Source of the DNA: Blastocladiella emersonii ATCC 22665 | Lineage: Eukaryota > Fungi > Blastocladiomycota | Assembly (NCBI GenBank): GCA_025594325.1 | Contig: JANHCV010000010.1 | Span: forward strand, 744,001-808,000 | Length of the DNA stretch: 64,000 nucleotides | Direction of reading: 5' to 3' | Made by a program: the position numbers and the translations under genes | In this document: piece by piece, positions 9,668 to 43,827 of the stretch | Layout of the letters: every line of letters begins with the position of its first letter | Numbering within the stretch: the first letter of the stretch is position 1 | The notes under the pieces: model-generated | What the model was told of the DNA's origin: nothing | The model's input: only the letters and a program-made list of their open reading frames with translations | Database searches by the model: none

Positions 9668-10292
9668 AGTTTGCGAGGAGTTTTCCGTCTGATGCAAGGT
9701 GACGGGGAGAGTTGCGACTCGAGGAGCGCGTCGCGCGCGTGCGAACTCGTGGGGCGCACATCGTCCCCCCGCACGTGCCTGCACGCCACGAACCGCGAAT
9801 ATAGTCAATATCCATGACTGCGCACCCGTTGTCTCTCTACGTTCATGCAATGATTTGTTAATTTTGGGCTAATTTCGCGACAGGAGAACGTATCTTTGGG
9901 CTCGCTCATTCTGGGAGCGCCGGGAGTCGAGGTGCGAGACGCGCTGCGCCACCGGCGTGATCAACGCCACCCGCCCGAGAGCGCCACACTTTGGCGCAGA
10001 CTCAACGATTTCCCAGGCCCTCGCTCGCACGAAATGAACGTAACTGAATGTAAACACCGCTCCCGACTGCAGGTCGAGCCGTAGACTAGGCGCACGCGGA
10101 TCTCGGGCCCCACGCCGACCTCGAGCGCCACTCGACCCGCCGACCACATCTTGCAATTTTCGCGCCTCACTTGATTGGTCCCTGCGCCTGCGCCTGCGCC
10201 GCTGAACGCCATCGCAGCGCTCGAGCAGTGATCCCTGGACTCGCTTTCCCTCTTTCTCCTGGTGTGCTGCCACCCTCGCCGTCGTCGCCACC

Positions 10293-27245: not shown

Positions 27246-28065
27246 TGTCGTATCCCTTAAGGGATACGACATGGGCTGACCCACTGCCACTTGGGCTGAC
27301 CAATTGCTTACCCCGAGCGGTCGGCGACAGTCACTCGGGGTAACCACGTGAGACCCCGTTGCTTACCCCGGGTGGTTAATAAAATGTCGGATTCAAATGT
27401 CGTGTTCCCTTAGGGAACACGACACGCGGACGGAGGCCGAAGGCCGAAGCAGGTGGGCGGGAGGGTGGGTGGAAGGGAGGGGGCGAGCGGTCCAGGAGTG
27501 AGTCCCTGACCTGACCCCCGAGCCTGTCCCTAACCAACCCCTTGGGCTGACCATTGCTTACCCCGAGCGGTCGGCGGCGGCCGGCGAGCGCAGCGAGACG
27601 AAGAGCAGCGCAGCTGCGGCTACCCACTGACAGAGTTCCCTGGTCTGGTCCCTGAGCACGGCTGCGAGTCGATCTGCGAGTTGATCTGCAAGACAAGTCC
27701 GAGAGCAGATCCCTGAGCCTGTCCCTGACCAACCACTCAGGCTGACCATTGCTTACCCCGAGCGGTTGGCGGCGGCCGGCGAGCGCAGCGAGACGAAGAG
27801 CAGCGCAGCTGCGGCTACCCACTGACAGAGTTCCCTGGTCTGGTCCCTGAGCACAGCTGCAAGTCGATCTGTGAGCAGCCCCCGAGCCAGTCCCTGACCA
27901 CCTGCCGCAAGCAGCTGCTATGAAGCCACTCACTGTAAAGTTCCACTTTCATGGCATATTACGACAGAGTATATATATACACTACCCTTTTTTGCCATGA
28001 AAGTGGAACTTTCAAAGACAAGAGGTCAGGGTACGGGGGGTCAGGGCAGGGGAGCGTCTTAGCAG
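27246..28065 (+). repeat. Left terminal inverted repeat
   Basis: Reverse complement of 43009-43827 apart from 3 substitutions and one 1-bp indel noticed; contains two ~195-bp-period internal repeats. Confidence 0.95.
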
Positions 28066-28089
28066 GCAGCGTCTTAGCAGGCAGCGTCT

Positions 28090-28240
28090 TAGCAGGAAGG
28101 GGCATGCCAGGTCGGGGGTGCCGGGTCAAGGAGGGTCGGGGGTGCCAGGTCGGGGGTGCCGGGTCAAGGAGGGTCGGGGGTGCCAGGTCAGGGGTGCCAG
28201 GTTGGGGGTGCCGGGTCAAGGAGGGTCGGGGGTGCCCGTT
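28090..28240 (+). repeat. G-rich minisatellite (GGTCGGGGGTGCCR-type units)
   Basis: About eight G-tract units, all on one strand. Confidence 0.8.
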
Positions 28241-28304
28241 GCTACGTCATGCCAAGTGCGTTGAATGCGTTTGTCAATTTAAACTTTGTTGGACTACTGT
28301 AACT

Positions 28305-28457
28305 ATGCGAGGCTGTATCAAAGAGATCGTCCCCCTGCCCAAGCCGCCATGCGATCACTATGATGCTCCCAGCTGGGTCCATGACAATGAGCTGCTGTGG
28401 GTCCAAGTTGTGTACCCGTGCTGCGGGCACAAGTACACATACCGCCGGGTAGTCTGA
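28305..28457 (+). CDS. Small viral ORF (50 aa, Cys/His-containing)
   Basis: MRGCIKEIVP...YPCCGHKYTYRRVV; preceded by TGTTG-N8-TAAC motif. Confidence 0.5.
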   Translation: MRGCIKEIVPLPKPPCDHYDAPSWVHDNELLWVQVVYPCCGHKYTYRRVV

Positions 28458-28717
28458 GAGCGACCAGTAAAGGCTTCAAGGTAGCTAACCAAGTTAACTT
28501 GAAGGATCTATTCAAAGCAGACAGTGTACACAACCTTGGCACCTGGCAGGGCCACGTCGCGGATGGCCGTGTAGTTGGCTGTCGACTGGGGGCCCGGATG
28601 GCCAGTCCAAGGGATGCTCGTGGAAGGTGCGCGGGGCGTTGATGCAGTAGAGCCAGTATTCATTGTCCTGTGTCTTACTATGCCTTCGCAGAAAGAATTT
28701 AAAGCACATGTCGTTGC

Positions 28718-28819
28718 TTACTCTACGGCGTGGAATACTTTGCTTGTGTACCTGACAATGGCCAGGTTGGCTACCAGGATCAGGGCGTTGGTGGCAACAA
28801 GGAGCGTCTCGAGGATCAT
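28718..28819 (-). CDS. Small hydrophobic viral peptide (33 aa)
   Basis: MILETLLVATNALILVANLAIVRYTSKVFHAVE; preceded by TGTTG-N8-TAAAC motif. Confidence 0.55.
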   Translation of the reverse strand: MILETLLVATNALILVANLAIVRYTSKVFHAVE

Positions 28820-28850
28820 GTTTACAGTACAACAACAATTAAAGTCAACG

Positions 28851-29594
28851 TCAGATGAACGCGAGCTCGACGTAGAAGGGTTGGCCAAGAAAGTCGACAG
28901 AGCGCAGGTTCTTGTCTACCACGTCAATGTCAATACAGTCAATCTGCTGGGCCTGTCCCTGCGCGTCAAAGCGAAAGTAGTCACCCATGTGTGGTCGATG
29001 CTCGAACCAGCTGCCAAAGGGTTGCGTGACGTGGATGCTACAAAGTACGCCGTTGTCTTGTGGGTACGCGCTGTACATGTTTTCCGCAAGCCGGGTGCCA
29101 AGGTTGCGCGAGTAGACGTGAAGCAGGTTGATGGGCGAGATGTTGACCAGCGCCGACGCGTACTGGACCTTGCTGTAGCCATACGCTCCAACAAAGCCCA
29201 TGTGGACGTTCAGCGACGCCGTCCCTGTTCCAATTGTAAAGTCGACCGTGTCGTTGGCCAGGCGCATCTTCTGGGTAGTCGAGTCAACCTGGACGTCCCA
29301 TGTGCCCTGCCAGAGGTACGCTGAGGGCGCGTTGTTGAGCAGGCTCTTGAGCGTGGCCGTGAACGTCTCGACCGTGTAGTTGCCATCAGGGACGGTGATG
29401 GTGCCCGGGAACGTCAGCGCGCCACGGCTCTGGGTCAGGTACACTTTGTTGGCCTTGGAGTTGACCGTGTGCCAGCTGTTGCAGAGGTACGCCGAGTTGA
29501 CCTTGACGCCGCGCACGGACAGGGGTCGTGGTAGGTACAGGATGCCGTTCTTGAGGTCGCGGCTGCAGATGGTCAGCGTCTTGTACTCGGACAT
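28851..29594 (-). CDS. Minor capsid protein (penton, single jelly roll)
   Basis: SRD N-terminus, ITVPDGNYT, MGF, and C-terminal IDIDVVDKNLRSVDFLGQPFYVELAF match the PLV/virophage penton pattern; adjacent to MCP. Confidence 0.8.
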   Translation of the reverse strand: MSEYKTLTICSRDLKNGILYLPRPLSVRGVKVNSAYLCNSWHTVNSKANKVYLTQSRGALTFPGTITVPDGNYTVETFTATLKSLLNNAPSAYLWQGTWDVQVDSTTQKMRLANDTVDFTIGTGTASLNVHMGFVGAYGYSKVQYASALVNISPINLLHVYSRNLGTRLAENMYSAYPQDNGVLCSIHVTQPFGSWFEHRPHMGDYFRFDAQGQAQQIDCIDIDVVDKNLRSVDFLGQPFYVELAFI

Positions 29595-29612
29595 TTAAAC
29601 AAAGACAACAAT

Positions 29613-29879
29613 TTATTGTACAGCTGTCCCCGTGTCGTCAGCGTCTGCCTCAAAGATCTCGCTCGTCGGTCGGTTGTACCAGGTGTGAATGTCTTGGGCA
29701 AGGTCCACGCCCTTGGTCACCATCTGCGCAATGGAGCTCACGGCGGGGTTGTGCGACCGCTCAAAGAACTTGGACACGGTCTTGACGCCTTTGAGGACGG
29801 TTGGCATGTGTTTGTTGACAAAGGACCCAACCTGGCCGAGCACATTGCTAAAGTTGGTCCAGAGGTTACGGAAGATCAT
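29613..29879 (-). CDS. Small amphipathic-helix protein, possibly membrane-lytic (protein VI-like)
   Basis: FRNLWTNFSNVLGQVGSFVNK amphipathic pattern; lies between MCP and penton. Confidence 0.6.
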   Translation of the reverse strand: MIFRNLWTNFSNVLGQVGSFVNKHMPTVLKGVKTVSKFFERSHNPAVSSIAQMVTKGVDLAQDIHTWYNRPTSEIFEADADDTGTAVQ

Positions 29880-29921
29880 GGCGGGGTTTAACTCTACGCA
29901 AGAAAAGAAAGGACAGGGCCG

Positions 29922-31142
29922 TTACTTGTAGATGTTGATCTCGCCGGTTGGCAGGAACTCGTAGACCACGTCGATGCCAATGAAGGCGTCCACGCGCTGG
30001 TTCGGGGCCACGCTTGAAGTCAGGATCACCTGCATGTCCACGGCCTGGCTCTTGCAAGACTTGTCGCCGCTGACCACGGTGCGACTTGACTCAAGGTCAC
30101 GGCCAACAACAAAGGTACCCTTGGCCAGCGCGTTGAACTTGTCGACTGTGAGGCCAGCGCCAATGACGTGGCCATGGAAGGCATTGGTCAGCTCAACGAA
30201 CGCCTCAGACGCGTAGTCGTCACATCGGATGGGTCGCTGAGGGAAGAGTCGGCCGGCCACGCTGAACTGGTACAATGTAATGGTCTTGGCACGAAGGAAC
30301 GAGTCCTTGGCATTGTTGTTGAGCACGGCATTGTTGCGGAACAACAGCAGGATGTCTTTCTGTGAGGCCGAGCGGTCCGAGATGTTGAGCGTTGAGTTGG
30401 GCACCGAGTAGTTCAGGAAGTGGTGGTTGTAGGTCGTGCCAAAGAGCTTGAGGCCCTGCTTCTTGAAGGCCGCGTCCATGACCGCGATCTGCTGGTCGTT
30501 GAGCTTGATCAGGTCCGAGACGATGCAGACGTCCTTGACTGTGTAGCCCGGGATGACATTGTTCTTGACAATGCAGGCGTCACTGCCAGGTGCGAGGGTG
30601 AACTCGACGCAGATGCCGCCCGTGTACTTCATTGGCAGGTGCTTCTGGTTTGCCAGCAGGGCCGACTTGATGGGCAGCATGTACCGGTGCAGCCTGGACA
30701 AGACGGCGAACTTGTCTGCGCCGGACGCAAAGTAGCCCTGTGCCACGCCGAGACACGAGTCCTTGAGGTACTGGGGGACCATCACGTCGGCCTCGATGCG
30801 CTGACGCAGGTTGTAGTACGGGAGCTCTTCGAGTAGGGCACCAGACGCGCTGTAGATGCGGACACGGTCAATGACGCTGAAGATACCATCGCAGAAAGCG
30901 ACGTTGGCGTCCGTGGTCTTGGCCGAGAACTGCAGGAAAGTACAGTGCGTGACCATCATGTTGTCGCGCGGCGGGAGCAGGACGCTGATGCTGTTGCCAG
31001 GAGCAAACTCGGGGCCGCCCTGAGCTGTGAACTGGACGGTCTGGCGCTCGGCATAGACGGACTCCTTGGGCAGGTTGAACGACATCTCGGGAGGGAGAGT
31101 CTTGGACAGGACCTGCGAGAACTGGGCGTTGGTACTGGACAT
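29922..31142 (-). CDS. Major capsid protein (double jelly roll, PLV-type)
   Basis: 406 aa, beta-rich; EFAPGNSISVLLP, SVIDRVRI, LPMKYTGGICVEFTLAP, YQFSVAGRLFPQRPI, FVVGRDLE; next to ATPase and penton. Confidence 0.85.
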   Translation of the reverse strand: MSSTNAQFSQVLSKTLPPEMSFNLPKESVYAERQTVQFTAQGGPEFAPGNSISVLLPPRDNMMVTHCTFLQFSAKTTDANVAFCDGIFSVIDRVRIYSASGALLEELPYYNLRQRIEADVMVPQYLKDSCLGVAQGYFASGADKFAVLSRLHRYMLPIKSALLANQKHLPMKYTGGICVEFTLAPGSDACIVKNNVIPGYTVKDVCIVSDLIKLNDQQIAVMDAAFKKQGLKLFGTTYNHHFLNYSVPNSTLNISDRSASQKDILLLFRNNAVLNNNAKDSFLRAKTITLYQFSVAGRLFPQRPIRCDDYASEAFVELTNAFHGHVIGAGLTVDKFNALAKGTFVVGRDLESSRTVVSGDKSCKSQAVDMQVILTSSVAPNQRVDAFIGIDVVYEFLPTGEINIYK

Positions 31143-31182
31143 GGTTTAGTTTAGGACTCGGCAACAAAAAAAAGTCAAGAGT

Positions 31183-31980
31183 CTACTGCTTCACGATCCA
31201 CTCGCTGAAGCTGTCTACGAGCCGGTACTTGGGCGGGTTCTGGTTGTTGACGCCCAGGAAGCGTTGCTTCGTGTTGCCAGTACGCGTGTCAAAGAGCTGT
31301 TCAATGATGGCCTCAAACTCCTTGAGGTCGAACTGCGACCCAATCTCCTTGTGCAGCGTCTGGACCTCGGTCTTGTCATAGATTGGGTAGACGACGCTGT
31401 AGCTGCAATTGATGCGCAGAGTCTTGGGCAGGGCACACCACTGCTGGACGCCAATGATGCAGCTGATCTTCAAGTGCCGCGAGTTGCACAGAAAGTTGGT
31501 CAGCGTTTGGTGGCTCAGCAGCTTGAGCCCAAGCACGTTGTCAATGATCAGCAGCTGGTCCTGGAGCGCCTTCTTGCCAGACTCTTCGAATGTCTTGGTC
31601 AGGTCCTGGCGCATCTTGAGCAGGGTCGGGATGAACTGCTCGGGGTCCGTGACAATGCACCCTGGCTTGATCTTGAGCCGGTCCGGGTCGCGCTCCTGGG
31701 GGTCCAGCACGTTGCGCTCCTTCTTGGGCGGTCGCAGGATCGGTTGACTGGCAATGTACTCGTACTTGTCGTTGGCGTGGAACGTCGGGTTAAAGACCCA
31801 GATGTTGTCGAACTGGCCCTTGTAAAAGTGCGGGAAGCAGACCATGTTTGCGATCAGCGTCGACTTGCCCTGACCCTTGGCGCCAATGACGTTCATGGTG
31901 AACGGGTGCTTGGGGATCAGCAGCGGCTCGCTGTCATCGTTGCGCGTAAAGCCGTTGTCAATGGCAACAATGTCGTACAT
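31183..31980 (-). CDS. A32/FtsK-family genome packaging ATPase
   Basis: Walker A GAKGQGKST; Walker B LLIIDN (usually DD); SRHLKIS...Q...LPKTLRIN motif. Confidence 0.9.
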   Translation of the reverse strand: MYDIVAIDNGFTRNDDSEPLLIPKHPFTMNVIGAKGQGKSTLIANMVCFPHFYKGQFDNIWVFNPTFHANDKYEYIASQPILRPPKKERNVLDPQERDPDRLKIKPGCIVTDPEQFIPTLLKMRQDLTKTFEESGKKALQDQLLIIDNVLGLKLLSHQTLTNFLCNSRHLKISCIIGVQQWCALPKTLRINCSYSVVYPIYDKTEVQTLHKEIGSQFDLKEFEAIIEQLFDTRTGNTKQRFLGVNNQNPPKYRLVDSFSEWIVKQ

Positions 31981-32006
31981 TTAAAGACTGCCAACAAAAA
32001 AGGGCG

Positions 32007-33722
32007 TCAGTCCCAGCTGAGGTCAAGCACAATGCCGCTGCGCCTTGGGGTCTCGCGGACCTGCTTGATGGGCCGCTCAGGGATCTTCTGGTGACGCTGG
32101 ATCTTGGGCGCTGTCAGCCCGCTACCCGCTGCCCGCTTGTCTGTGAACAGCTTCGCGTCGGTCGGCTTCTTGTAGCCCAGTTGCTTGAGGATCTGTTCGA
32201 GGAGCATGTCGGTCTTCTTAGAACTACCGCCGGAATTGTTTTGCGCGGCCAGCTCCCTGATCATGGCCTCGAGGCCGCTTGTGTCGGCAGGCTGGACAAT
32301 GACTTGGGGTGCAGGGATCGTGTCCAGCTTGGACCCAAGGTCTTGGAGCGTCTTGGTCATGGCCTCGTTGCTCTGGGTCTGCCCTTGGATCGCGCCCTGG
32401 ACGCCGCTTGCGAGCTGGTTCATGAGCACCTGCTGGTTGCTGAGCGCAGAGGACATGCCCGTGGCAATCTCAGACACAAGCGCGCGGTTGCCAGCGTCAA
32501 TCTGGCGGACAAAGTCGTTGCGTTTGGCTCGGAGCGTGTCCACGATCCCGGACGCGAGGTTGGCAAATGCGTCCATGGCCAGTCCCTGAGCGGCCGCCGA
32601 CTGCTCGATGAGCGCCTGGTACGCCTGGTACTGCATGACCTGGGACCCGGCAAACTGCGAGGCAATGAGCTCGAGCGCGACCATGACGTTCGGGTCATTG
32701 TTGTACTGGACCAGGATCTGCTGCCGCATGTCCACGTTCTGCTCGTAGTAGTTGTTCTCGTACTGGGTGATGAACTGCCGCATGTCGACGTTCTGCGTGT
32801 TCTGCTGCGTGTAGCTGTTGTACACGAACTGGTTAAACTGTTGAAAGTTCTGGACAACGTCGACCTCCATGTTGTCCGTGGTTGTCAGCGCCCGCTCGGG
32901 GTTGTAGACCTGCAAGTCCTTGGAGCCCTCAATCATGCGTGCCTCGTCCATGGCCGGGTGGACGTGACCCTCGTTGTACACGCCTTGTCGCTGTGCCACG
33001 TCCGGGCCGTAGCTTGGTGGCATGACCACGAGGTCGCGGGTGCCGTCGTCAAGCCTTGGGGGCGGGTCGTTGCCGCCGTCATTGTCATTCTGGATCAGGT
33101 ACTGGCCGGGGATCATGGCGCCGTACTCGTCAATGTCTTGACCAACATAGTCGCCGGCCTCGACCGGGTACTGCTCAGGCATGACTGGCCGGACAGGCAC
33201 GGGGAGCAAGTGGTCCGGTACAGCGTCCTCATCAATGACGTCCAGGGCTCGCAAGATCTCTTCTGCCAGCTCGTCGCGCTCCTCTTCGCTGCTGCCCCTG
33301 TCGCTGTCCGTGGCCAACTCGGGGGCCTCTGGTCTGGGGCTTGCCGCTGGTGGAGCGACTGGGACTCGAGTGACCTTGCCCGTTGCCTGGTGCTCTTCCC
33401 ACGCTTTAAGCGTGTCTTGGACGTGCTCCTGGAGGTCCTTGACCTCGTACCCAGTGACGCCGTCCTGGTGCTTGAGGTAGAACAGCGAGTCGCCTCGTTT
33501 GCGGCCAAAGTCGTTGGCATAGCTCTCGGGCGTCACCTTGTAGTCAAAGGCAAGGATGTAAGGCACCCAGACGTCGAGGAGCTCTTTGGCATTGGGGAAC
33601 GTGTACTCGCGGCCATCAATGGTCGCCTTGATCTTCTGCCCTGCAAGGCGCTCAGCCGTGATGCGGCCGTCGGTTGCCTTGGTCACTCTTGCGAGTAGTT
33701 CTGGTACTGTTCTTTGGCCCAT
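32007..33722 (-). CDS. Uncharacterised viral protein (571 aa) with N/Q-rich repeat and coiled-coil region
   Basis: Long ORF with element-type codon usage; duplicated QNVDMRQ motif. Confidence 0.75.
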   Translation of the reverse strand: MGQRTVPELLARVTKATDGRITAERLAGQKIKATIDGREYTFPNAKELLDVWVPYILAFDYKVTPESYANDFGRKRGDSLFYLKHQDGVTGYEVKDLQEHVQDTLKAWEEHQATGKVTRVPVAPPAASPRPEAPELATDSDRGSSEEERDELAEEILRALDVIDEDAVPDHLLPVPVRPVMPEQYPVEAGDYVGQDIDEYGAMIPGQYLIQNDNDGGNDPPPRLDDGTRDLVVMPPSYGPDVAQRQGVYNEGHVHPAMDEARMIEGSKDLQVYNPERALTTTDNMEVDVVQNFQQFNQFVYNSYTQQNTQNVDMRQFITQYENNYYEQNVDMRQQILVQYNNDPNVMVALELIASQFAGSQVMQYQAYQALIEQSAAAQGLAMDAFANLASGIVDTLRAKRNDFVRQIDAGNRALVSEIATGMSSALSNQQVLMNQLASGVQGAIQGQTQSNEAMTKTLQDLGSKLDTIPAPQVIVQPADTSGLEAMIRELAAQNNSGGSSKKTDMLLEQILKQLGYKKPTDAKLFTDKRAAGSGLTAPKIQRHQKIPERPIKQVRETPRRSGIVLDLSWD

Positions 33723-33799
33723 GATGGTTACTGTATGGACCGAAAATAAAACGTCCCCCTGTCGGTACCTTTTTCCCCGTGGCAGGTGCCTTTTGTCCC

Positions 33800-34051
33800 T
33801 CAGACGGTGCTATTTGCCCCCTGGTCCCGGCGCTTGGCGTTGAGTGCCTTGTAGATCCGGATCTTGACCCGCTCTGCCCGCGCTGCCTCGTTGTCGACGT
33901 GCGTGTACCGGTTGGCCTTGTGGTCGCGCTTCCATAGCCACTTGGCCTTGTCCTCGTCGCTCTTGCTGTACCAGCTGCTTGGCACGGGCATGGTCCCGGC
34001 GAGGTGCTCCCGCCACTCGTCCAGGCTCAGGTCATGGTCGCTGGAAATCAT
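33800..34051 (-). CDS. Small basic viral protein (83 aa)
   Basis: Compact ORF divergent from the fibre gene and filling the intergenic gap. Confidence 0.55.
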   Translation of the reverse strand: MISSDHDLSLDEWREHLAGTMPVPSSWYSKSDEDKAKWLWKRDHKANRYTHVDNEAARAERVKIRIYKALNAKRRDQGANSTV

Positions 34052-34071
34052 TCTGTTGCTTAAGGTTAAAC

Positions 34072-36015
34072 ATGGTCAAGAATATCTTTAACGTCTCAAG
34101 TACTGCGTCTCCGACTGTGTCTACCACGGGGGTCCCGGACGTGTCCAAGGCCTACGTTGACGCAGCCATCAGTGCCGTGTACGCCACGGTTGGCACACCT
34201 GTTGCTGGCCCTGGCGTGGCAGTCTCAGGGACCACTGTGTCGGCCAAGGTCGACAACCAGACCCTTGGCGTGGGCGCAGCAGGGCTCTATGTCAAGTCGG
34301 TTGGCACGGCACAGCTGCTCCCGGCCAGCGTCACGGCCGACAAGGTCGCCACGATTACAGCAGGGCAGGTCACTGGCAAGCTCGTCGATGCTCAGCTGGA
34401 CACTGTGTCTGCGTCCAAGGTCGTGGGCGTGCTCAGTGCGTCCAACCTCCCAGCCGTCGGAACCTCGGTCCTGGCAGACGGCTCAGTGACAGATGCCAAG
34501 GTTGCGTCTGTGTCCGGGTCCAAGCTCGTGGCAGGCACAGTCGGGACCTCGGTCCTGGCAGACGGCTCAGTGACTGATGCCAAGGTCGCGTCCATGTCCG
34601 GGTCCAAGCTCGTGGCAGGCACGGTCGGCACAGCGGCTCTTGTTGACCTGGCAGTCACAGATGCCAAGGTCGCGTCCGTGTCTGGGTCCAAGCTCGTTGC
34701 AGGGACTATTGGGACGGGAGCCCTGGCAGACGGTGCCGTATCCAACGCCAAGGTGGCAGCTGGCATCGACGGGTCCAAGCTGGCAGCGGGCACGGTCGGC
34801 TCCCTGGTCCTGGCAGACGCGGCCGTGACCAACGCCAAGCTGGCAACTGGCATCGATGGGGGCAAGCTCAACGTTGGGTCCATTGGAACAGCCCACCTGG
34901 CAGCAGGCGCAGTCACGGACGCCAAGGTTGCGGACGTGTCGGCGGTCAAGCTCACTGGGATCCTCAACCCTGCCCGCATCGCCGACGGGACCCTGACCAA
35001 CGCCAAGCTGGCATCTGGCATTGACTCGGCCAAGCTTGCAGGGACCATTGACCTGGCACGACTCCCCGACGTCTCGGCCAAGGTCACGGCGGTGAGCGCA
35101 GCCTCGGTCGCTGGCACGCTCCCCCAGTCCACCCTTGGGCTTGGCGCTGCCTTTGCCTTTGCAAATACGACGGACAGTTTGACATCAAGCACTGGAGCAG
35201 TCACCATTGCTGGTGGTCTTGGAGTTGGCAAGCAACTGACTGTGCCCAACGTCCTGGTCCGGAATGCCACAAGCGCGAACCTTGTCTTTGACTCGGCTGC
35301 CAATACATTGACGTACGTCGACTTTAAGCAGGCAGGCGTACTGCGAAGCAACCTGGCATGCACAGCGGCAGGTAACATTGAGATTGCGTCTGCGACCACG
35401 GGCGGGGTCTCCCTTGTGGCAGGTGGCGGCAATGTGGTCGTGGGCTCGGCGACGCTTGGCACAGAAAGGTTCCGCGTCAATGGCACTGGTCGCTTCACAG
35501 GGCAGCTCACCCTTGACCTCGCTCCAGTGGCAGGCACCGACGCGGCAAACAAGGCGTACGTTGACTCGCGGTCTGGCACGACCCGGTACGTCGCTCAGGC
35601 CGAGCACCGCTCTACAAACGGAGTGACCACGGGCGGCAAGATCATTGGCGGCACAGCATCGACGGGCCCGGCCACCTTTGCGTTCCAGTCCACGGCGGGC
35701 GCGTTCACGTCTGTGATCAATGGATGCGTCAAACCCCCTGTCAGTGGCTACTACCTCGTCCATGCAAAGGGCTACTACGCAAACGGCGCGCTCCCTGGAG
35801 CCCACACTGTGAACTTTGCGCTGTACAATATGACGGACATGATTGCAGTGTCGCTTGTCACCGGGTGCCGCGCTGAAGGCAACGTCCAGTTCCTTCAGTT
35901 CTCGAGCATTGAGTACCTTGACGCGGCCAAGAGCTACTCTTTCATCTGGATCCCGTCGGTCGCAGTTGCCAACGACTGCCAGGTCATCATTCAAAGCCAC
36001 TGGACCCTGCTCTAA
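34072..36015 (+). CDS. Fibre/spike protein with 28-aa repeats
   Basis: VGTSVLADGSVTDAKVASVSGSKLVAGT repeats (84-bp period); DAANKAYVD motif typical of phage-type fibres. Confidence 0.8.
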   Translation: MVKNIFNVSSTASPTVSTTGVPDVSKAYVDAAISAVYATVGTPVAGPGVAVSGTTVSAKVDNQTLGVGAAGLYVKSVGTAQLLPASVTADKVATITAGQVTGKLVDAQLDTVSASKVVGVLSASNLPAVGTSVLADGSVTDAKVASVSGSKLVAGTVGTSVLADGSVTDAKVASMSGSKLVAGTVGTAALVDLAVTDAKVASVSGSKLVAGTIGTGALADGAVSNAKVAAGIDGSKLAAGTVGSLVLADAAVTNAKLATGIDGGKLNVGSIGTAHLAAGAVTDAKVADVSAVKLTGILNPARIADGTLTNAKLASGIDSAKLAGTIDLARLPDVSAKVTAVSAASVAGTLPQSTLGLGAAFAFANTTDSLTSSTGAVTIAGGLGVGKQLTVPNVLVRNATSANLVFDSAANTLTYVDFKQAGVLRSNLACTAAGNIEIASATTGGVSLVAGGGNVVVGSATLGTERFRVNGTGRFTGQLTLDLAPVAGTDAANKAYVDSRSGTTRYVAQAEHRSTNGVTTGGKIIGGTASTGPATFAFQSTAGAFTSVINGCVKPPVSGYYLVHAKGYYANGALPGAHTVNFALYNMTDMIAVSLVTGCRAEGNVQFLQFSSIEYLDAAKSYSFIWIPSVAVANDCQVIIQSHWTLL

Positions 36016-37124
36016 AGCCCGCGGTCCCACTTTTCTTGGACTCGGACTGGGACGCGCCTGACCCGGGTCGAGGGCTCCCTTGGCGTGACTGGGGTGCGCG
36101 CAACAGGGAGCCTTGGAAGACCTGGACCTACACGCTGCCTTGTTGGCGGGTCCTGGGTCGCTGTGACTGGCTGGACGTCGCTTCGAGGGTAGAAGCCCTT
36201 GAGGCCTTGGACCTTGTAGCTCGGATTGCTCACGCCCGACCCCTTGCGCACGACCTGGACCTGGCTCACAGTTGTCGACCAGACCGGCTTCCCCTTGGCC
36301 TCCATGGCAGTCTTGTACGGCTCGCGGACTCGGACCTGGGTCCCTACCTTCAACAACGCGCTCAGAGGGTCGCCCTCGGGCTTGCCCTTGGCAGCTCGGA
36401 TCTCCTTGAGCTCTTGCTTGGCCGTTTCGCGGGGCATGTCATGGAACGCGTTGGGTGCCTTGCTTGTGGCCCTCGACTTGCTGCTGTTGATCACAGATTC
36501 AATGGTCTCGAGGTGCTTGGGCCAGTCGTTGTTGCCTGGGATGGACAGCCACGGTGTGAGCATCCGGCGGATGGTCCCGTTCATGCGTTCAACAACACCT
36601 TGACCGTATGGCACTCCTGCCTTGCCCTTGATGTGCTTGGCCTCGGTCCCGGCCTCTATGCCAAAGAACTCGGTCCCATTGTCCGTCTGGATCGTGGCAG
36701 GTGCAAGGCTGTGCTTGGCGACCACGCTGGACCATGCTTCCCGCGTCTTGTCCTTGGTCTTGATGGGTTGGAGGTAGACGCAGCGGCTCGCCAGGTCGAC
36801 ACACGTGAGAATGTAACGGAAGCCCTTGTACGTACCGTTTTCGCCCATGTCAATGAGGTTGAGCTGAAAGTTGCGGCCAGGACTTGTTGAGTTGATGCTT
36901 CGAATGTCTCGGCGCTTCTGAGGTGCGCGCTTGTACTGCTGCCACACGGACTGGTTGTTGAGCCACCGCTCGAGCTGGGCGCGGTAGATGTGCTTCCCTG
37001 TGTGCTCTTGGTCGACAATGTCAAAGAGCCAACGGATGCCAACCCCAACATGGCCGCGTTTGTAGTACAAGTCTTTCAGGTACTCGGTCTGTTCAGCAGT
37101 CAAAGGTTCTTCGTGGGCATACAT
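36012..37124 (-). CDS. Retroviral-type (rve) integrase, Polinton/Maverick-like; first catalytic Asp appears replaced by Asn
   Basis: LKDLYY...WLNNQ N-terminus; FQLNLIDM, YILTCVD, IQTDNGTEF, VVERMNGTIRR; C-terminal VGTQVRV SH3-like region. Confidence 0.92.
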   Translation of the reverse strand: MYAHEEPLTAEQTEYLKDLYYKRGHVGVGIRWLFDIVDQEHTGKHIYRAQLERWLNNQSVWQQYKRAPQKRRDIRSINSTSPGRNFQLNLIDMGENGTYKGFRYILTCVDLASRCVYLQPIKTKDKTREAWSSVVAKHSLAPATIQTDNGTEFFGIEAGTEAKHIKGKAGVPYGQGVVERMNGTIRRMLTPWLSIPGNNDWPKHLETIESVINSSKSRATSKAPNAFHDMPRETAKQELKEIRAAKGKPEGDPLSALLKVGTQVRVREPYKTAMEAKGKPVWSTTVSQVQVVRKGSGVSNPSYKVQGLKGFYPRSDVQPVTATQDPPTRQRVGPGLPRLPVARTPVTPREPSTRVRRVPVRVQEKWDRGL

Positions 37125-37152
37125 TGTATTAACAAAGGTGGAGACAAAAGGA

Positions 37153-38280
37153 TTACTGAGGCGTCATGTAGTAGGTCAGCGCAACGGGGACGCTGTGACC
37201 CATCTCGTGCGCGCGTTTGGCAATAGCTTGCTGCGCAGCAAAGTTCTCACTGGTGGAGATACGGCGGATCACTGCCACGCCGCCATCCTCAAAGCCGACC
37301 GTCTTTGCAGCCCAACTAATCGACGTACACCAGGTGCTGCTAACCCTCTTGCGGAGCGTGGTGTCCTTGAGCTCCTCGAGGGTGTAGTTGTTGAAGACAA
37401 AGTCATGACCTTCGGCGAGACGCTGGGCGAGGATACGCTTGAGAGCGGCGGCGACCTTGGGCTCACTAACTGTGTGCGAGAAGTTGTAGCCACAGCCCTC
37501 TGTCTTGACAATGACATCGCCGGCCAGAATCTGGGTCTCTGGGTCGTAGTACGGGTACCCAGTGGTTGGCTTCGTGGTCAGGAACGCAGGGTCGGAGCGC
37601 ACCGCACTCACAACTTGGAGGTACAGACGCAGGAGCCCCGTGCCCGAGCCCTTTGCATCAACAATAGCGGCGCAAATGGCGTCACGGCTTGGGAGCGCAC
37701 CAGACTCGAGTTCCTTGCGCGCGTTGCGGAAGTCGGCAGCGTCCTGCTTCTTGGCCTCTGTGTACTTGGCCCCGAGTTCGGTCCACCCGTTCCAGGTGCA
37801 GTACTTGGCCAGGGCCTTGAGCGTCTCGACCTGCAGACCCTGGACGTTCTTGGACCCCTTGATCGCGCGGTACGTGGCCACGGCCTTGGACACGGCATTG
37901 ACGTTGTGGATATCCATGCCCGACTTGGCAAATGCAAGGAGCACGCAAGTTGTCTTGGTCTTGTCCGTGTCGCTCAGCGTGGCCTGCTCCCCGTTCTTGT
38001 CCACCACAGGCGCGTTGACACATGCCTCGATGGCATCCTCAGTCAGCTCAGCAAACTTGACCTTGGGGGTGTCGACTTCCACGGGAGTGACTTGCTGATC
38101 AGCGCCGTGATCTGGGTCGTGTGACTCGATGGCCTTGAGTCGCGCGTCCAAGTCCTTGAAGCGCTTGTTGATTGACCCAAACACGGGCTGGAGCTTGTCC
38201 ATGACTTGCTGCACCACGTCTGCGGCAACATGCTGAGCGAGGGCAACGGCGACCTGGGAGGCAACAGACTCGAGCGACAT
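37153..38280 (-). CDS. Tyrosine recombinase-family protein
   Basis: Ordered candidate catalytic set: R (SAVRSD), K (IVKT), R (VIRR), H (MGHS), Y (LTYY) at the C-terminus. Confidence 0.7.
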   Translation of the reverse strand: MSLESVASQVAVALAQHVAADVVQQVMDKLQPVFGSINKRFKDLDARLKAIESHDPDHGADQQVTPVEVDTPKVKFAELTEDAIEACVNAPVVDKNGEQATLSDTDKTKTTCVLLAFAKSGMDIHNVNAVSKAVATYRAIKGSKNVQGLQVETLKALAKYCTWNGWTELGAKYTEAKKQDAADFRNARKELESGALPSRDAICAAIVDAKGSGTGLLRLYLQVVSAVRSDPAFLTTKPTTGYPYYDPETQILAGDVIVKTEGCGYNFSHTVSEPKVAAALKRILAQRLAEGHDFVFNNYTLEELKDTTLRKRVSSTWCTSISWAAKTVGFEDGGVAVIRRISTSENFAAQQAIAKRAHEMGHSVPVALTYYMTPQ

Positions 38281-38405
38281 GGTTTACTGACTGTCAACAA
38301 AAAGGCTCCATGGGCTCAAGTGCGTTTGAACGCAACGTTCTTTTTTCTGGGTAGCTGGGCCTGGGTCAGGGTCAGGGTGGTGGCAAGTCATGGACCGTGG
38401 GAGGG

Positions 38406-39720
38406 CCCAGGTCACGGTTTGAGAGGTTCGTGACCTCGGCCTCTGCTGGTGCCCAAGTCGGGGTCATGGGGGGGGGGGGTGGAGGTCCGGTTCTTCGCCG
38501 TCAGTCGCGTCCCAGGTCACGGTTTGAGCGGATCGTGACCTCGGCCTCGACTGGCTCCCAAGTTGAGCTCATGGGGGGTTCGTGACCTCGGCCTCTGCTG
38601 GTGCACAAGTCGGGGTCATGGGGGGTGGAGGTCCGGTTCTTCGCCATCAGTCGCGTCCCAGGTCACGGTTTGAGCGGATCGTGACCTCGGCCTCGACTGG
38701 CTCCCAAGTTGAGCTCATGGGGGGTTTGTGACCTCGGCCTCTGCTGGCGCCCAAGTCGGGGTCATGGGGGGTGGAGGTCCGGTTCTTCGCACTCAGTCGT
38801 GTCCCAGGTCACAGTTTGAGCGGATCGTGACCTCGGCCTCGACTGGCTCCCAAGTTGAGCTCATGGGGGGTTCGTGACCTCGGCCTCTGCTGGCGCCCAA
38901 GTCGGGGTCATGGGGGGTGGAGGTCCGGTTCTTCGCCCTCAGTTGTGTCCCAGGTCACGGTTTGAGCGGATCGTGACCTCGGCCTCGACTGGCTCCCAAG
39001 TTGGGCTCATGGGGGGTTTGTGACCTCGGCCTCTGCTGGCGCCCAAGTCGGGGTCATGGGGGGGGGAGGCCCGGTTCTTCGCCGTCAGTCGTGTCCCAGG
39101 TCACAGTTTGAGCGGATCGTGACCTCGGACCCTACTGGCTCCCAAGTTGGGCTCCTGGGGGGGTCTGTGACTTTGCCCTCAGTCGCTGCCCAGGTCACGG
39201 TTTGAGAGGTTCGTGACCTGAGACGCGATTGGCTCCCAAGTTGGGCTCCTGGGGGGTCCGTGACTTTGCCCTCAGTTGCTGCCCAGGTCACGGTTTGAGC
39301 GGGCCGTGACCTCGGCCTCTGCTGGCTCCCAAGTTGGGCTCCTGGGGGGTCCGTGACTTTGCCCTCAGTCGCTGCCCAGGTCACGGTTTGAGCGGGCCGT
39401 GACCTCGGCCTCTGCTGGCTCCCAAGTTTGGGCTCCTGGGGGGTCCGTGACTTTGCCCTCAGTCGCTGCCCAGGTCACGGTTCAAGGATCGTGACCTGAG
39501 ACGCGATTGGCTCCCAAGTTGGGCTCCTGGGGGTCTGTGACTTTGCCCTCAGTCGCTGCCCAGGTCACGGTTCAAGGATCGTGACCTCGGACCCTACTGG
39601 CTCCCAAGTTGGGCTCCTGGGGGGTCCGTGACTTTGCCCTCAGTCGCTGCCCAGGTCACGGTTCAAGGATTGTGACATCGGCCTCAACTGGCTCCCAAGT
39701 CGGGGTCATGGGGGAGGTCG
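38406..39720 (+). repeat. Tandem array of hairpin-containing units (4 x 146 bp, then ~6 x 90-94 bp, plus partial end units)
   Basis: CCCAGGTCAC starts at 38406, 38511, 38657, 38803, 38949, 39095, 39189, 39282, 39375, 39469, 39559, 39650. Confidence 0.95.
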
Positions 39721-39888
39721 TGTCTGGGTCAGGGACAGGTCACGCAAGGGCAGCCGGGCCTGGGTCAGGACAGTGGCAAGTCATGGGCCATGCCAACAAG
39801 GGCTCCCGGGTCACAGCCATTAGCGCTAAATCCTGCGCGTTTAAACGCACCTGCCCTGTCACCTTTTCTGTTACCTCATCATAACAAC

Positions 39889-42800
39889 ATGGTCTGCGAG
39901 ACGGTCCCCGACAATGCAGGTGGCAAATCCTTTGGTCTCCAGTGGTACCGTGGCAAGGACGGCGGCGGCAGCGACATGGGCCCTCAGCGCAAGCTCTTGT
40001 CCGAGCTGCAAGACGACGAGACGGTCATCAAGCGCCTCATCAACAAGGGCGTCGACAACCATGGCGAACCCAAGGCGGCGCACTATTTTGCCAAGGTCAA
40101 GACAGTGGGCCTGGCTGGGCTCCTCAACAAGAACCGCTGCATCCAGGAGATGGTCCACCCCGAGCGCCTGTCCAAGGTCTACTTTGACATTGACTGCCCG
40201 GGCAACAACAAGGACGTGACGCTGGACGTCATCAAGAAGGTCATCCTGGCCCAGTTCCCCGGCGCCAACCTCCAGGTCTGCGGCTACGAGACGGACCTCA
40301 AAAAGTCGTGGCACATTGTCCTCAGCAACTACACGGCCACGCTCAAGGACATGTCGTTCCTGAAGCTGTTCTGCAGCCACCCCGACCACGTCAAGCTCGG
40401 CTTTGACGCCAGCGTGTACAGCAAGCACCGCTTCATGAAGTGCATCAACCAGTCCAAGCCCAAGAAGACACCCGGCACGTTCAAGGCAGGGAACAAGGAC
40501 CGCCTGTCCAAGCATCTGATCCAGTACGACTTTGACCCCAACTGCGTGCCGATCTCGGACCTGTCCTTTGTCGAGTTTGTGTCTGCCAAGGCCAAGGCAG
40601 CGCGGGCCAAGCGCCGCAAGGGTCGCTTTGACTACGACCTCGACATCCCCAAGTTCAAGGACGTGCAGATCGACCCCGACTTCTTCTACTACAACGCCAC
40701 GCCACTCGAGATCCTCCACAACCTCCCTGTCAGCCCCGAGAACGCGTTCCACAACAACGTGACCTGGCTGATCATGACCTGGGCCATGCGCAAGGGTGTC
40801 ACCTTTGAACAGTTCTGGGCGTGGACGTCGCAGCAGGACAACTCGGCTCAGCGCTTTGCCAAGTACCAGCAGCGGTGGGGCGAGATTGCCAGCAACTGCG
40901 ACTACCAGGTGCCAGACAAGTTCATCAAGGCCATCTTCTACAAGCGGTTCCGGGACGCGTTCAAGTCCAAGGCCATGATCAAGTTTGAGCAGTCGCTCCA
41001 GGTCCCCGCCGACGTGACCGTCCCCAACCAGTTCCTGAGCTGCAACGACATTACCGAGGCCAAGTTCAACGTGCTGGCCACGGGCATGGGCTCCAACAAG
41101 ACAGGCGCTGTTTGCGACTACATTGCCAAGTACCCAGACGCGCGAGTGGTCTGGATCACACCTCGCATCACCCTGGCCCACAACACCGAGGGTCGAGCCC
41201 GCGAACAGAAGCTTGGCTTTGTCAACTACCGCAGCATCAAGGACAAGAAGACACTGGGGGATCACAAGCGACTCATTGTCTCGCCGTGCTCGCTGCACTA
41301 CTTGACCGAGCCCTACAACATTGTTGTGGTGGACGAGTCCGAGACAGTCCTCAAGATGTTCCAGGACGCCAAGTTGCACACAACCACCATTCGCAACAAC
41401 CTCGAGGCCAACCTCAAGGCCTTCAAGACGCTGTGCGAGCACAAGGGCAGCAAGGGTATCTTCATGGACGCGTTTGTCACGAACCTGACTATGGACGTCC
41501 TCCGCTCCTTTACTGTTGAGCACAACATCAAGACCATACTCCATGGTAAGATCAAGGTGATCACGAACACGCTTGGCAAGGAGTTTGAGCCGCGCAAGAT
41601 GAGCCTCATCACCGACAACAAGGACAAGGACAAGGAGAAGTCCGCCGAAGACATCATGGAGAGCAACATCATTGCCGACCTCAAGGCCAACAAGAAGCTC
41701 TACCTCTTCCTCCCACGACCATGCAAGAAGTCAACCAAGTGGTCGGTGCAGACCTTTGGCGAGTACCTTGAGCGGGTCTTTGCCGAGGAGACGTGGAAGA
41801 TTGGCAAGCAGATCAAGCTCTACCACGGCGACCGCCCCAACCACGAGGACAAGGAACTCATTGACCCCAACTCTGTGTGGGGCGACAATACGGTCCGTAT
41901 AGTCATCGCCAACCTCAAGATCACCATTGGCGTCAACTTCTCGACAAAGAACAAGTTTGACAAGGTGTACGCGCGCTACGAGTCCTGGGTCCCTGCCCGC
42001 AACTTCTTCCAGGCAATCTACCGCGTGCGCTACCCCATTGACAACGAGATCGTGTTCATGATCAGCAATGGTTGCCACGGCGCGTACATGAACAAGTCCC
42101 AGGTTATTAACTCAGACTTGGTCGGCAAACTTCACCAGGCCATTGTCAAGAACACAGATCTCGAGAACGAGATGGCCGCTGTGACCTCGTGCCTCAAGGT
42201 CTTTGACACCTTCCGCAAGGTTGCCAACATTGTCATGGACGACTCCCCCGAGTACTACTACAAGGCGCACCCCGAGATTGAGGATGTCATGACATCGGGC
42301 TGGTCCTTTGACTGGGCAAACGTCCAGCTTCCATCCAAGGAGACCCTGCGCGACCACTGCAAGGGTACACTCAAGGACCCGGACTGGACCATCTGCCTCT
42401 CCGTCCGCAAGGCCTTCTTCATCCGCAAGTTCAAGGGTCTGAGCGAGAACAACATGGAGGCCATCTGGGACGACAACGCCGAGCGCTTCATGGAACGTAT
42501 CCAGTACTTTTACACCAAGGACAAGGCCCACGTCCTGCACAAGCTCCTTGACCACAACGGCATGGACCTCCGCACGTCCGAGGAGTTCAACATCCAGGCC
42601 ACCATCCCCGCCACGTTTGAAGCAGACATCCACAAGTACTTCAAGAAGCTTGGGTATTACAAGTGTGACACAGCAACAGTCCTAAACAGGCTTCTCAGCA
42701 CTTACTTTAACAAGTGCCTTGCTGTGCCAGACAAGGATGAACCCCGGGTCTCAGTACGCGGCAAGAAGTACACTAACCTGAAGTGGACGGAAGACATCAA

Positions 42801-42909
42801 CTACTTTGTCATGTACAAGACCTGGACCACTGCCCCGGCCGAGTCGGCGCCATTTGTCCTGGAGCTGGACCTGGACGAGGTCTACGACGAGCTCATCAAC
42901 GAGCCCTAA
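39889..42909 (+). CDS. AEP primase-polymerase fused to a UL9-like superfamily-2 helicase
   Basis: AEP motifs YFDID, KKSWHI, DASVYSKHRFMK..QSK; PriCT-like segment; helicase GMGSNKT, VVVDESE, FMDA, ITIGVNF, FQAIYRVR. Confidence 0.85.
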   Translation: MVCETVPDNAGGKSFGLQWYRGKDGGGSDMGPQRKLLSELQDDETVIKRLINKGVDNHGEPKAAHYFAKVKTVGLAGLLNKNRCIQEMVHPERLSKVYFDIDCPGNNKDVTLDVIKKVILAQFPGANLQVCGYETDLKKSWHIVLSNYTATLKDMSFLKLFCSHPDHVKLGFDASVYSKHRFMKCINQSKPKKTPGTFKAGNKDRLSKHLIQYDFDPNCVPISDLSFVEFVSAKAKAARAKRRKGRFDYDLDIPKFKDVQIDPDFFYYNATPLEILHNLPVSPENAFHNNVTWLIMTWAMRKGVTFEQFWAWTSQQDNSAQRFAKYQQRWGEIASNCDYQVPDKFIKAIFYKRFRDAFKSKAMIKFEQSLQVPADVTVPNQFLSCNDITEAKFNVLATGMGSNKTGAVCDYIAKYPDARVVWITPRITLAHNTEGRAREQKLGFVNYRSIKDKKTLGDHKRLIVSPCSLHYLTEPYNIVVVDESETVLKMFQDAKLHTTTIRNNLEANLKAFKTLCEHKGSKGIFMDAFVTNLTMDVLRSFTVEHNIKTILHGKIKVITNTLGKEFEPRKMSLITDNKDKDKEKSAEDIMESNIIADLKANKKLYLFLPRPCKKSTKWSVQTFGEYLERVFAEETWKIGKQIKLYHGDRPNHEDKELIDPNSVWGDNTVRIVIANLKITIGVNFSTKNKFDKVYARYESWVPARNFFQAIYRVRYPIDNEIVFMISNGCHGAYMNKSQVINSDLVGKLHQAIVKNTDLENEMAAVTSCLKVFDTFRKVANIVMDDSPEYYYKAHPEIEDVMTSGWSFDWANVQLPSKETLRDHCKGTLKDPDWTICLSVRKAFFIRKFKGLSENNMEAIWDDNAERFMERIQYFYTKDKAHVLHKLLDHNGMDLRTSEEFNIQATIPATFEADIHKYFKKLGYYKCDTATVLNRLLSTYFNKCLAVPDKDEPRVSVRGKKYTNLKWTEDINYFVMYKTWTTAPAESAPFVLELDLDEVYDELINEP

Positions 42910-43008
42910 GACAGTCCACGACCTGCCACGCTGCCTTCCTGCCTGCTAAGACGCTGCCTGCTAAGACGCTCCCTTGCCCTGACCCCTGTCCCGCCCAATA
43001 CATTGATG

Positions 43009-43827
43009 CTGCTAAGACGCTCCCCTGCCCTGACCCCCGTACCCTGACCTCTTGTCTTTGAAAGTTCCACTTTCATGGCAAAAAAGGGTAGTGTATATAT
43101 ATACTCTGTCGTAATATGCCATGAAAGTGGAACTTTACAGTGAGTGGCTTCATAGCAGCTGCTTGCGGCAGGTGGTCAGGGACTGGCTCGGGGGCTGCTC
43201 ACAGATCGACTTGCAGCTGTGCTCAGGGACCAGACCAGGGAACTCTGTCAGTGGGTAGCCGCAGCTGCGCTGCTCTTCGTCTCGCTGCGCTCGCCGGCCG
43301 CCGCCGACCGCTCGGGGTAAGCAATGGTCAGCCTGAGTGGTTGGTCAGGGACAGGCTCAGGGATCTGCTCTCGGACTTGTCTTGCAGATCAACTCGCAGA
43401 TCGACTCGCAGCCGTGCTCAGGGACCAGACCAGGGAACTCTGTCAGTGGGTAGCCGCAGCTGCGCTGCTCTTCGTCTCGCTGCGCTCGCCGGCCGCCGCC
43501 GACCGCTCGGGGTAAGCAATGGTCAGCCCAAGGGGTTGGTTAGGGACGGGCTCGGGGGTCAGGTCAGGGACTCACTCCTGGACCGCTCGCCCCCTCCCTT
43601 CCACCCACCCTCCCGCCCACCTGCTTCGGCCTTCGGCCTCCGTCCGCGTGTCGTGTTCCCTAAGGGAACACGACATTTGAATCCAACATTTTATTAACCA
43701 CCCGGGGTAAGCAACGGGGTCTCACGTGGTTACCCCGAGTGACTGTCGCCGACCGCTCGGGGTAAGCAATTGGTCAGCCCAAGTGGCAGTGGGTCAGCCC
43801 ATGTCGTATCCCTTAAGGGATACGACA
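43009..43827 (-). repeat. Right terminal inverted repeat
   Basis: Reverse complement of 27246-28065. Confidence 0.95.

Follow-up and report, generated by a model that had tools for sequence, protein, structure and literature searches.

We describe a short two-part sequence motif that marks the gene starts of a virus-like element integrated in the genome of the fungus Blastocladiella emersonii ATCC 22665. The element lies within a 64-kb stretch of contig JANHCV010000010.1 (positions 744,001 to 808,000; this whole stretch is called the window, and all positions are counted from its first base). It measures 16,582 bp, and its gene set fits that of a polinton-like virus (PLV). Ten of its twelve open reading frames (ORFs) are preceded by the pattern TGTTG-N8-TAA(A/C) or by a version with one mismatch. 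Our analysis confirms that the enrichment of this motif and its fixed 8-nt spacing are real and, within the window, restricted to the element, and a function as element-specific gene-start signal is well supported. We further interpret the motif as the element's own compact promoter and predict that it is read by virus-supplied machinery rather than by the unaided host RNA polymerase II (Pol II), a reading to which, taken as a whole, we assign slightly less than even confidence.

A fixed-spacing motif at the gene starts of the element

The 17-base motif can be written as TGTTGNNNNNNNNTAAM and usually has a run of T upstream. Searches covered both strands of the window, in which we distinguish a 15-kb element core and the remaining 47 kb of host sequence. 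The ten sites, including three with one mismatch, are the following:

28287..28303, plus strand: TGTTG-gactactg-TAAC, 1 nt ahead of the ATG of a 50-aa Cys-rich ORF (28305-28457)
28821..28837, minus strand: TGTTG-ttgtactg-TAAA, then C and the ATG of a 33-aa hydrophobic ORF (28718-28819)
29594..29610, minus strand: TGTTG-tctttgtt-TAAA, overlapping the ATG (TAAATG) of a 247-aa ORF (28851-29594); intergenic spacer of 18 nt
29887..29903, minus strand: TCTTG-cgtagagt-TAAA, then C; one mismatch; TAA ends 8 nt before the ATG of an 88-aa ORF (29613-29879); 27.4 bits
31150..31166, minus strand: TGTTG-ccgagtcc-TAAA inside a duplicated TAAACTAAAC, with T8 ahead; likely major capsid gene (29922-31142, 406 aa)
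31980..31996, minus strand: TGTTG-gcagtctt-TAAA, overlapping the ATG (TAAATG) of the gene for an A32-type packaging ATPase (31183-31980, 265 aa)
34054..34070, plus strand: TGTTG-cttaaggt-TAAA, then C and the ATG of a 647-aa fibre-like ORF (34072-36015)
34065..34081, minus strand: TCTTG-accatgtt-TAAC; one mismatch; the ATG of an 83-aa ORF (33800-34051) follows 13 nt on; 17.9 bits
38283..38299, minus strand: TGTTG-acagtcag-TAAA, then CC and the ATG of a 375-aa ORF (37153-38280)
39869..39885, plus strand: TGTTA-cctcatca-TAAC; one mismatch; 3 nt before the ATG (39889-39891) of a 1006-aa primase-helicase-like ORF (39889-42909)

The exact pattern has seven matches in the window (28287+, 28821-, 29594-, 31150-, 31980-, 34054+ and 38283-), all within 28287-38299, inside the element. 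Only 0.18 matches are expected, and a count of seven was reached in none of 100 dinucleotide shuffles of the window. The looser form GTTG-N8-TAA occurs eight times compared with 1.54 expected, at the same seven sites and at 14079+. Since the GC content of the element is lower than that of the DNA around it, the test was repeated on the element's own composition: Markov simulations of the core of order 1 and order 3 (300 each) gave means of 0.13 and 0.09 matches, with a maximum of 2. An earlier note on this DNA, which had proposed the motif, named an equal frequency in AT-matched shuffled sequence as an outcome that would speak against it. Composition-matched shuffles of the twelve 45-nt upstream regions contained GTTG-N8-TAA in a mean of 0.03 regions (maximum 2 in 5000 shuffles), compared with seven regions observed.

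One rival explanation, an artefact in which AT-richer intergenic DNA yields the motif by chance or through its composition, can draw on the 42% GC of the upstream 45-mers compared with about 59% for the element, and on the frequency of TGTTG by itself, which has 72 copies on both strands of the core. However, seven matches stand against 0.03-0.18 expected in four null models, none of which reached seven, and the spacing is exact; this refutes the artefact and leaves it a negligible probability. When spacers of 0-20 nt were scanned in the core, N8 gave seven matches and any other length 0-2, and in the 47 kb of host sequence N8 gave none, in agreement with the earlier impression that the motif does not precede host genes. 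An unbiased enumeration of dyads (4-mer, gap, 3-mer) over the 60 nt preceding each of the twelve ORFs ranks TGTT-N9-TAA first, with 8 of 12 regions. Using a position weight matrix (PWM), the ten sites score 17.6-32.7 bits; all are in the element and on the coding strand, none is intragenic, and elsewhere in the window scores reach 11.6 bits at most. As the matrix was built from nine sites, the scores of these nine are circular, and only the site of the 83-aa ORF, which was absent from the training set, is an independent match (17.9 bits).

All seven 8-nt spacers quoted in the earlier note were found as given, on the strand of the gene and with the TAA ending 0-8 nt ahead of the ORF-opening ATG. 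Its two near-matches, TCTTG-N8-TAAAC at the 88-aa ORF and TGTTA-N8-TAAC at the 1006-aa ORF, are likewise present. With the one-mismatch sites included, 10 of 12 ORF starts are marked and the TAA ends 0-14 nt from the ATG. The upstream half, T-run and TGTTG, stands exactly 8 nt from the TAA in 10 of 10 sites, and a T-run precedes most of them. The site of the 83-aa ORF overlaps the motif of the fibre-like gene back to back, and these two genes are divergent. Two ORFs are the exceptions. The rve-like integrase ORF (36012..37124, minus strand) has no convincing motif upstream (PWM 8.5 bits), as the earlier note had stated, and the 571-aa ORF (32007..33722, minus strand) has only a T-run with an unconvincing TCGGT-N8-TAAC at 33727-33743 (PWM 8.6 bits).

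The motif takes up nearly all of the intergenic spacers, which measure 18, 20, 26, 28, 31, 40 and 42 nt. With seven head-to-tail genes on the minus strand and such short spacers, the motif might also act on RNA, as a signal for processing, polyadenylation or translation (re)initiation in long polycistronic transcripts. The T-run and TGTTG could then be the 3'-end signal of the upstream gene, and TAA is a stop codon that twice overlaps the ATG (TAAATG). However, the TAA of the motif and the stop codon of the preceding gene are separate; the 88-aa ORF, for instance, stops at 29613-29615, whereas the motif TAA is at 29595-29597. Stop-start coupling was rejected for this reason. Moreover, four sites (those of the 50-aa, fibre-like, 375-aa and primase-helicase-like ORFs) have no co-oriented gene upstream, and the four gene ends without a co-oriented downstream gene carry no motif. 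The motif therefore follows gene starts and not gene ends, and a polyadenylation signal was rejected on this basis. A splice acceptor or branch point was rejected because AG is not consistent in the spacers, in which no consistent hairpin was seen by eye either. Altogether, we consider a function at the RNA level quite improbable. The earlier reading as an element-specific gene-start signal is borne out by the 10 of 12 marked ORF starts, the coding-strand orientation and the motif-filled spacers of 18-42 nt. For the capsid gene, the N-terminus MS(S/L)T(N/Q)A.FS is kept in homologues at 36-38% identity, which indicates that the ATG behind the motif is the real start.

The initiator half reads TAAA at 7 of 10 sites and TAAC at three; TAAATG occurs at two. 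TAAC is found at the 50-aa, 83-aa and primase-helicase-like ORFs, and TAAA(C/T) at all putative structural genes and the 375-aa ORF; ahead of the capsid gene TAAAC is doubled in tandem. It is tempting to speculate that the two types represent two temporal classes. The earlier note had linked the motif to the poxvirus late initiator. This link is weaker than implied, as the initiators are mostly TAAAC or TAAC.

Besides the motif, palindromes are located 15-18 nt upstream of the T-runs at the 375-aa ORF (GCGTTTGAACGC, 38322-38333) and at the primase-helicase-like ORF (GCGTTTAAACGC, 39837-39848), and at the 50-aa ORF a pair of direct TGCGTT copies (28258-28275) takes up the corresponding place. 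These elements may be an additional candidate factor-binding site common to three non-structural genes.

Probable promoter function and the predicted reader

The strand specificity, the tie to the ATG, the fixed spacing, the filling of short spacers and the absence from the host DNA of the window argue for a promoter with an initiator at each gene. The T-run and TGTTG, at about -22 to -9, would be the docking half for a factor or polymerase, and TAAA(C/T) would provide the transcription start site just ahead of the ATG. Initiation within TAAA would result in leaders of about 0-14 nt, and every gene would be a separate transcription unit. The integrase gene, which lacks the motif, would be expressed differently.

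As the reader we predict the polymerase or factors of a helper giant virus, most likely a co-infecting one, and not bare host Pol II. Judging from the promoter architecture and the virophage precedent, this would be a non-host machinery, possibly that of a nucleocytoplasmic large DNA virus (NCLDV). The prediction draws on the promoter layout of NCLDVs, on the match between virophage promoters and those of their giant viruses, and on the helper motif in PgVV, a virophage of Phaeocystis globosa virus (see below). No RNA-polymerase-like gene is found among the assignable ORFs of the element. Giant viruses infecting Blastocladiomycota (Allomyces) are described in the available passages of a study on Mycodnaviridae (PMC13533422), hence possible helpers exist.

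Alternatively, the motif could be a site read by host Pol II, alone or together with a DNA-binding factor encoded by the element, for example the 571-aa, 375-aa, 83-aa or Cys-rich 50-aa protein, and the element would then be an autonomous PLV or transposon without a helper. In line with this, no recognisable RNA polymerase is encoded by the element (11 of 12 ORFs scanned), and nuclear integration is indicated by an rve-like integrase, a target-site duplication (TSD) and perfect terminal inverted repeats (TIRs). The element is also present in multiple copies in a laboratory strain, with no giant virus reported in the literature searched, and its GC content is close to that of the host. An independent lytic lifestyle is assumed for some PLVs in the available part of one study (10.64898/2026.06.19.733378), and the palindromes or repeats ahead of three genes resemble factor-binding sites. 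On the other hand, with a motif 0-14 nt from the ATG and its partner 8 nt further upstream, a TATA box at about -30 followed by a normal leader would not fit. The layout of an ordinary Pol II core promoter (TATA about 30 nt upstream, leader of tens of nucleotides), which is a general rule and not this fungus's own, is thus not found. In addition, the host sequence of the window is free of the motif, and promoters for single genes in spacers of 18-42 nt are an arrangement that the available passages of two papers (PMC8547959, PMC5294985) report for giant viruses and virophages. Host Pol II as the reader nevertheless keeps about one third of our confidence because of the GC content, the few TAAATG sites, the spread without a reported giant virus and the possibility that a helper steers host Pol II.

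Further results weigh against a virus-supplied reader. A scan of IMG/VR with TTTGTTG-N8-TAAAC-N0-6-ATG returned at least 121 stretches, and no contig with several promoter-like matches was among those listed. One contig among the listed matches had two and a similar contig had one, all three in a conserved, coding-looking repeat of 39% GC, and 9 of the 122 listed matches were then followed by at least 60 open codons. Three viral contigs of 192-357 kb showed no excess of the motif over a reversed-pattern control. In the literature searched, which comprised few subscription journals, Blastocladiella is not linked to giant viruses or virophages, and it is not named in the text or in ten of the supplements of the Mycodnaviridae paper (PMC13533422). 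In the available passages of that paper, VLTF3, TFIIB and a capping enzyme are named and RNA polymerase goes unmentioned, so that a fungal helper might itself use host Pol II, which would blur the distinction between host and non-host machinery. Furthermore, the GC content of the element (about 58-60%) is nearer to that of the host than to that of the AT-rich giant viruses whose promoters virophages copy, the poxvirus-type TAAAT is present at just 2 of 10 sites, and the many near-identical copies indicate a recent spread without any known giant virus in that culture.

Taking both sides into account, we still favour the compact two-part promoter with a virus-supplied reader. In its most specific form, B. 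emersonii, long in use as a laboratory model, would carry a family of virophage-like, intact proviruses wired to the late-type promoter of an undiscovered blastoclad giant virus, with a poxvirus-like core-spacer-TAAA arrangement and TGTTG as a new core; this appears possible, and we give it little more than a third of our confidence. Promoters of virophages and PLVs are a handle for sensing the giant-virus helper, so that a motif as sharply defined as this one allows a prediction of how the promoters of that helper are built. If the undiscovered helper exists, the motif would be a ready-made probe for this virus, and the proviruses could be an inducible defence against giant viruses in a fungus. 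Giant viruses of zoosporic fungi have been described only recently, and since B. emersonii is culturable, the prediction of a fungal giant-virus partner is testable. Should host Pol II be the reader, the motif would represent an unusual and extremely compact Pol II promoter of an autonomous PLV and would bear on helper-free gene expression in polinton-like viruses.

The element, its proteins and its genomic surroundings

The boundaries and the main non-coding features of the element are:

27246..43827: integrated element of polinton-like virus type, 16,582 bp, with TSD GGCGT at 27241-27245 and 43828-43832
27246..28039, plus strand: left TIR, 794 nt, starting with TGTCG, 100% complementary to the right TIR
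43034..43827, minus strand: right TIR, ending with CGACA, from the 794-nt inverted-repeat search
38425..39722: tandem-repeat block of 146-bp and then 93-bp units, between the divergent 375-aa and primase-helicase-like genes

The element has TG..CA termini and lies between two direct copies of the 5-bp sequence GGCGT; together with the perfect TIRs, this defines the element size of 16,582 bp. By BLAST the TIR arms reach 820 nt at 99.5%. The left TIR contains 195-bp repeats and an inner palindrome; this palindrome, with 38-nt arms and an AT-rich centre (TATATATA), is found at the inner end of each TIR (27937-28012 and 43061-43136). The left one is adjoined by G-rich tandem repeats of 15 bp and 38 bp at 28053-28236. 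GC content is 0.55-0.63 within the element compared with 0.64-0.75 in the flanks. The 1.3-kb tandem-repeat block is bracketed by the above-mentioned palindromes GCGTTTGAACGC (38322) and GCGTTTAAACGC (39837), and each of its units carries GGTCACG...CGTGACC inverted repeats. The block could be an origin or a regulatory region.

Among the encoded proteins, the 265-aa ORF is identified as an A32-type packaging ATPase by Pfam Pox_A32 (1.5e-11, 44.7 bits, cut-off 22.8). The 647-aa ORF contains a Phage_Tail_Tip segment (1.9e-10), upstream of which the gene carries at least three in-frame 84-bp (28-aa) repeats at 34456-34754. For the 370-aa integrase ORF, the rve match (4e-05, 24.2 bits) is below the cut-off of 32.6, and its only two distant homologues both have PF00665. 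The 406-aa ORF has 352 relatives at E<=0.001 in a representative sequence library. Its AlphaFold2 (AF2) model is poor, with a mean predicted local distance difference test score (pLDDT) of 47.5. Foldseek with this model against BFVD gave 81 matches at E<=0.001, with TM-scores of just 0.2-0.4. Many of the best 50 of these 81 are named major capsid or coat proteins (of NCLDVs, a virophage and Sulfolobus turreted icosahedral virus), and the third-ranked match, from Tetraselmis viridis virus S1, is an unnamed protein. A major capsid protein, putatively of double-jelly-roll type, is thus likely, albeit not proven. Atlas language-model features of the 1006-aa ORF match Preplasmiviricota clusters with PriCT_2, Herpes_ori_bp and ResIII at 0.99, a lead, from these features only, towards a primase-helicase.

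Pfam and PDB sequence searches gave nothing useful for the 247-aa and 375-aa ORFs, and the earlier labels 'penton' and 'recombinase' are unconfirmed. The AF2 model of the 375-aa ORF has a pLDDT of 36.7; its C-terminus (...MGHSVPVALTYY...) resembles, by eye, what we take to be the consensus of tyrosine-recombinase box II. The 571-aa ORF had no usable Atlas match and no informative PDB or Pfam match, and six ORFs searched against Pfam at E<=5 gave no additional match. By Pfam, no family-B DNA polymerase, adenain-like protease or RNA polymerase was found in 11 of 12 ORFs (all but the 83-aa ORF), where divergent versions may have been missed. With an A32 ATPase, an integrase with TIRs and TSD, and a primase-helicase-like protein in place of polymerase B and protease, the element agrees better with a polinton-like virus than with a Polinton or a virophage of the mavirus type.

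The motif is the sole mark of the 50-aa and 33-aa ORFs as genes. The former is rich in Cys and His (C4, C16, H18, C39, C40, H42) and may bind zinc, and the latter is hydrophobic and possibly a small membrane protein. In the 260-nt gap between these two convergent ORFs there is a 65-aa ORF without motif (28512-28709, minus strand).

The nearest relatives of the capsid protein are 82-100% identical and annotated on several contigs (1-2.8 Mb) of Blastocladiella emersonii ATCC 22665, which indicates that the element is multi-copy and was recently active in this fungus. The earlier note had pointed to Blastocladiomycota as host group, and this proved correct. The corresponding 90% cluster has 26 members, 25 of them named, and the next relatives show 36-39% identity. 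Related loci were not found with a capsid alignment against metagenome and viral contigs, a second capsid alignment against viral contigs, P0009 against metagenome contigs or an ATPase alignment against viral contigs.

The flanking proteins in the window are of eukaryotic type, with leucine-rich repeat (LRR), ankyrin, SPA and GT2 domains, in DNA of 64-75% GC. At 4400-9700 on the minus strand, a tandemly duplicated ORF pair (271 and 307 aa, and 456 aa compared with 187 + 147 aa) has 58% GC, whereas its flanks have about 68%. The N-termini of the 456-aa and 147-aa ORFs look F-box-like by eye (...LTLGDVPPELLTVMCQL...), and the five long frames of this region gave no Pfam match and nothing viral-looking. 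A second viral element in this lower-GC region (4.4-9.7 kb) was rejected, as it is a tandemly duplicated gene pair without Pfam match.

Comparison with known systems

Upstream motifs specific to one element are already known from integrated virophage-like viruses. In the literature searched, with most subscription journals outside it, there is no report of this motif, of a strict bipartite form in a PLV or of such an element in Blastocladiella, and no mention of a virophage-like partner in Blastocladiomycota. For chytrid genomes, the available part of one study (10.64898/2026.06.19.733378) mentions PLV-like ATPases, and the word 'promoter' is absent from the entomopoxvirus-PLV paper.

The promoters of virophages match those of their giant viruses; in mavirus, TCTA equals the late promoter of Cafeteria roenbergensis virus (CroV), and the types of endogenous mavirus-like elements (EMALEs) in Cafeteria burkhardae carry differing upstream motifs that are thought to be recognised by giant-virus factors, the differences being interpreted as a match to different giant viruses (available passages of PMC8547959). 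As described there, EMALEs and virophages resemble the Blastocladiella element in being integrated, TIR-flanked, capsid-encoding small dsDNA viruses of a protist-grade host, with a single short motif ahead of most ORFs that is absent from the host. In contrast to the EMALEs, the motif found here is bipartite, keeps its two halves 8 nt apart and adjoins the ATG; moreover, the host is fungal, and there is no known giant virus that matches. Besides, the element has about 59% GC and no recognisable protein-primed polymerase or protease.

Another small replicon of the polinton supergroup in which a motif precedes each gene, the upstream conserved sequence (UCS), is found in the cytoplasmic linear killer plasmids of yeast, where it is read by a non-host polymerase. 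These plasmids carry genes for an RNA polymerase and a capping enzyme, are cytoplasmic and have no capsid. The Blastocladiella element, in contrast, has no recognisable RNA polymerase.

For punuivirus, an endogenous giant virus of Chlamydomonas, an NCLDV-type late promoter consensus AAANAACATAAG is given in the available part of its description (10.64898/2026.10.09.758095). Both systems have in common a short motif, there within 200 nt upstream of virion genes, in an integrated virus of a GC-rich host, and a difference from host-type promoters. However, the punuivirus motif differs in sequence, is not described as bipartite in that part, and is that of a giant virus, not of a PLV.

In its bipartite structure, the motif is similar to poxviral promoters. 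In vaccinia, a short spacer separates the T-containing core of intermediate and late promoters from TAAA (in the former) or TAAAT (in the latter) at the ATG, with essentially no 5' untranslated region, and the late promoter of African swine fever virus (ASFV) is described as similar (available passages of PMC5294985). Compared with the Blastocladiella motif, the bipartite form, the T-containing core and the short fixed spacer are alike, and so, in part, is the TAAA initiator overlapping or abutting the ATG. In contrast to poxviruses, the core here is a T-run with TGTTG, a word whose 'GTTG' is absent from the text of this 2017 promoter review; the spacer has 8 nt instead of the about 5-7 bp in late promoters, and the initiator is mostly TAAAC or TAAC.

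A further PLV with a helper-type motif is PgVV-14T, in which the early motif of the helper, AAAATTGA, is located upstream of five ORFs (available part of 10.1101/2022.07.28.501842). PgVV-14T has a PLV-type gene set (A32 ATPase, major and minor capsid proteins, recombinase and fibre-like protein) and, similar to our element, carries its motif at several ORFs. Whereas the PgVV motif is a known mimivirus-type early motif at five ORFs, with experimental support for dependence on the helper, the motif of the Blastocladiella element is undescribed and marks 10 of 12 ORFs.

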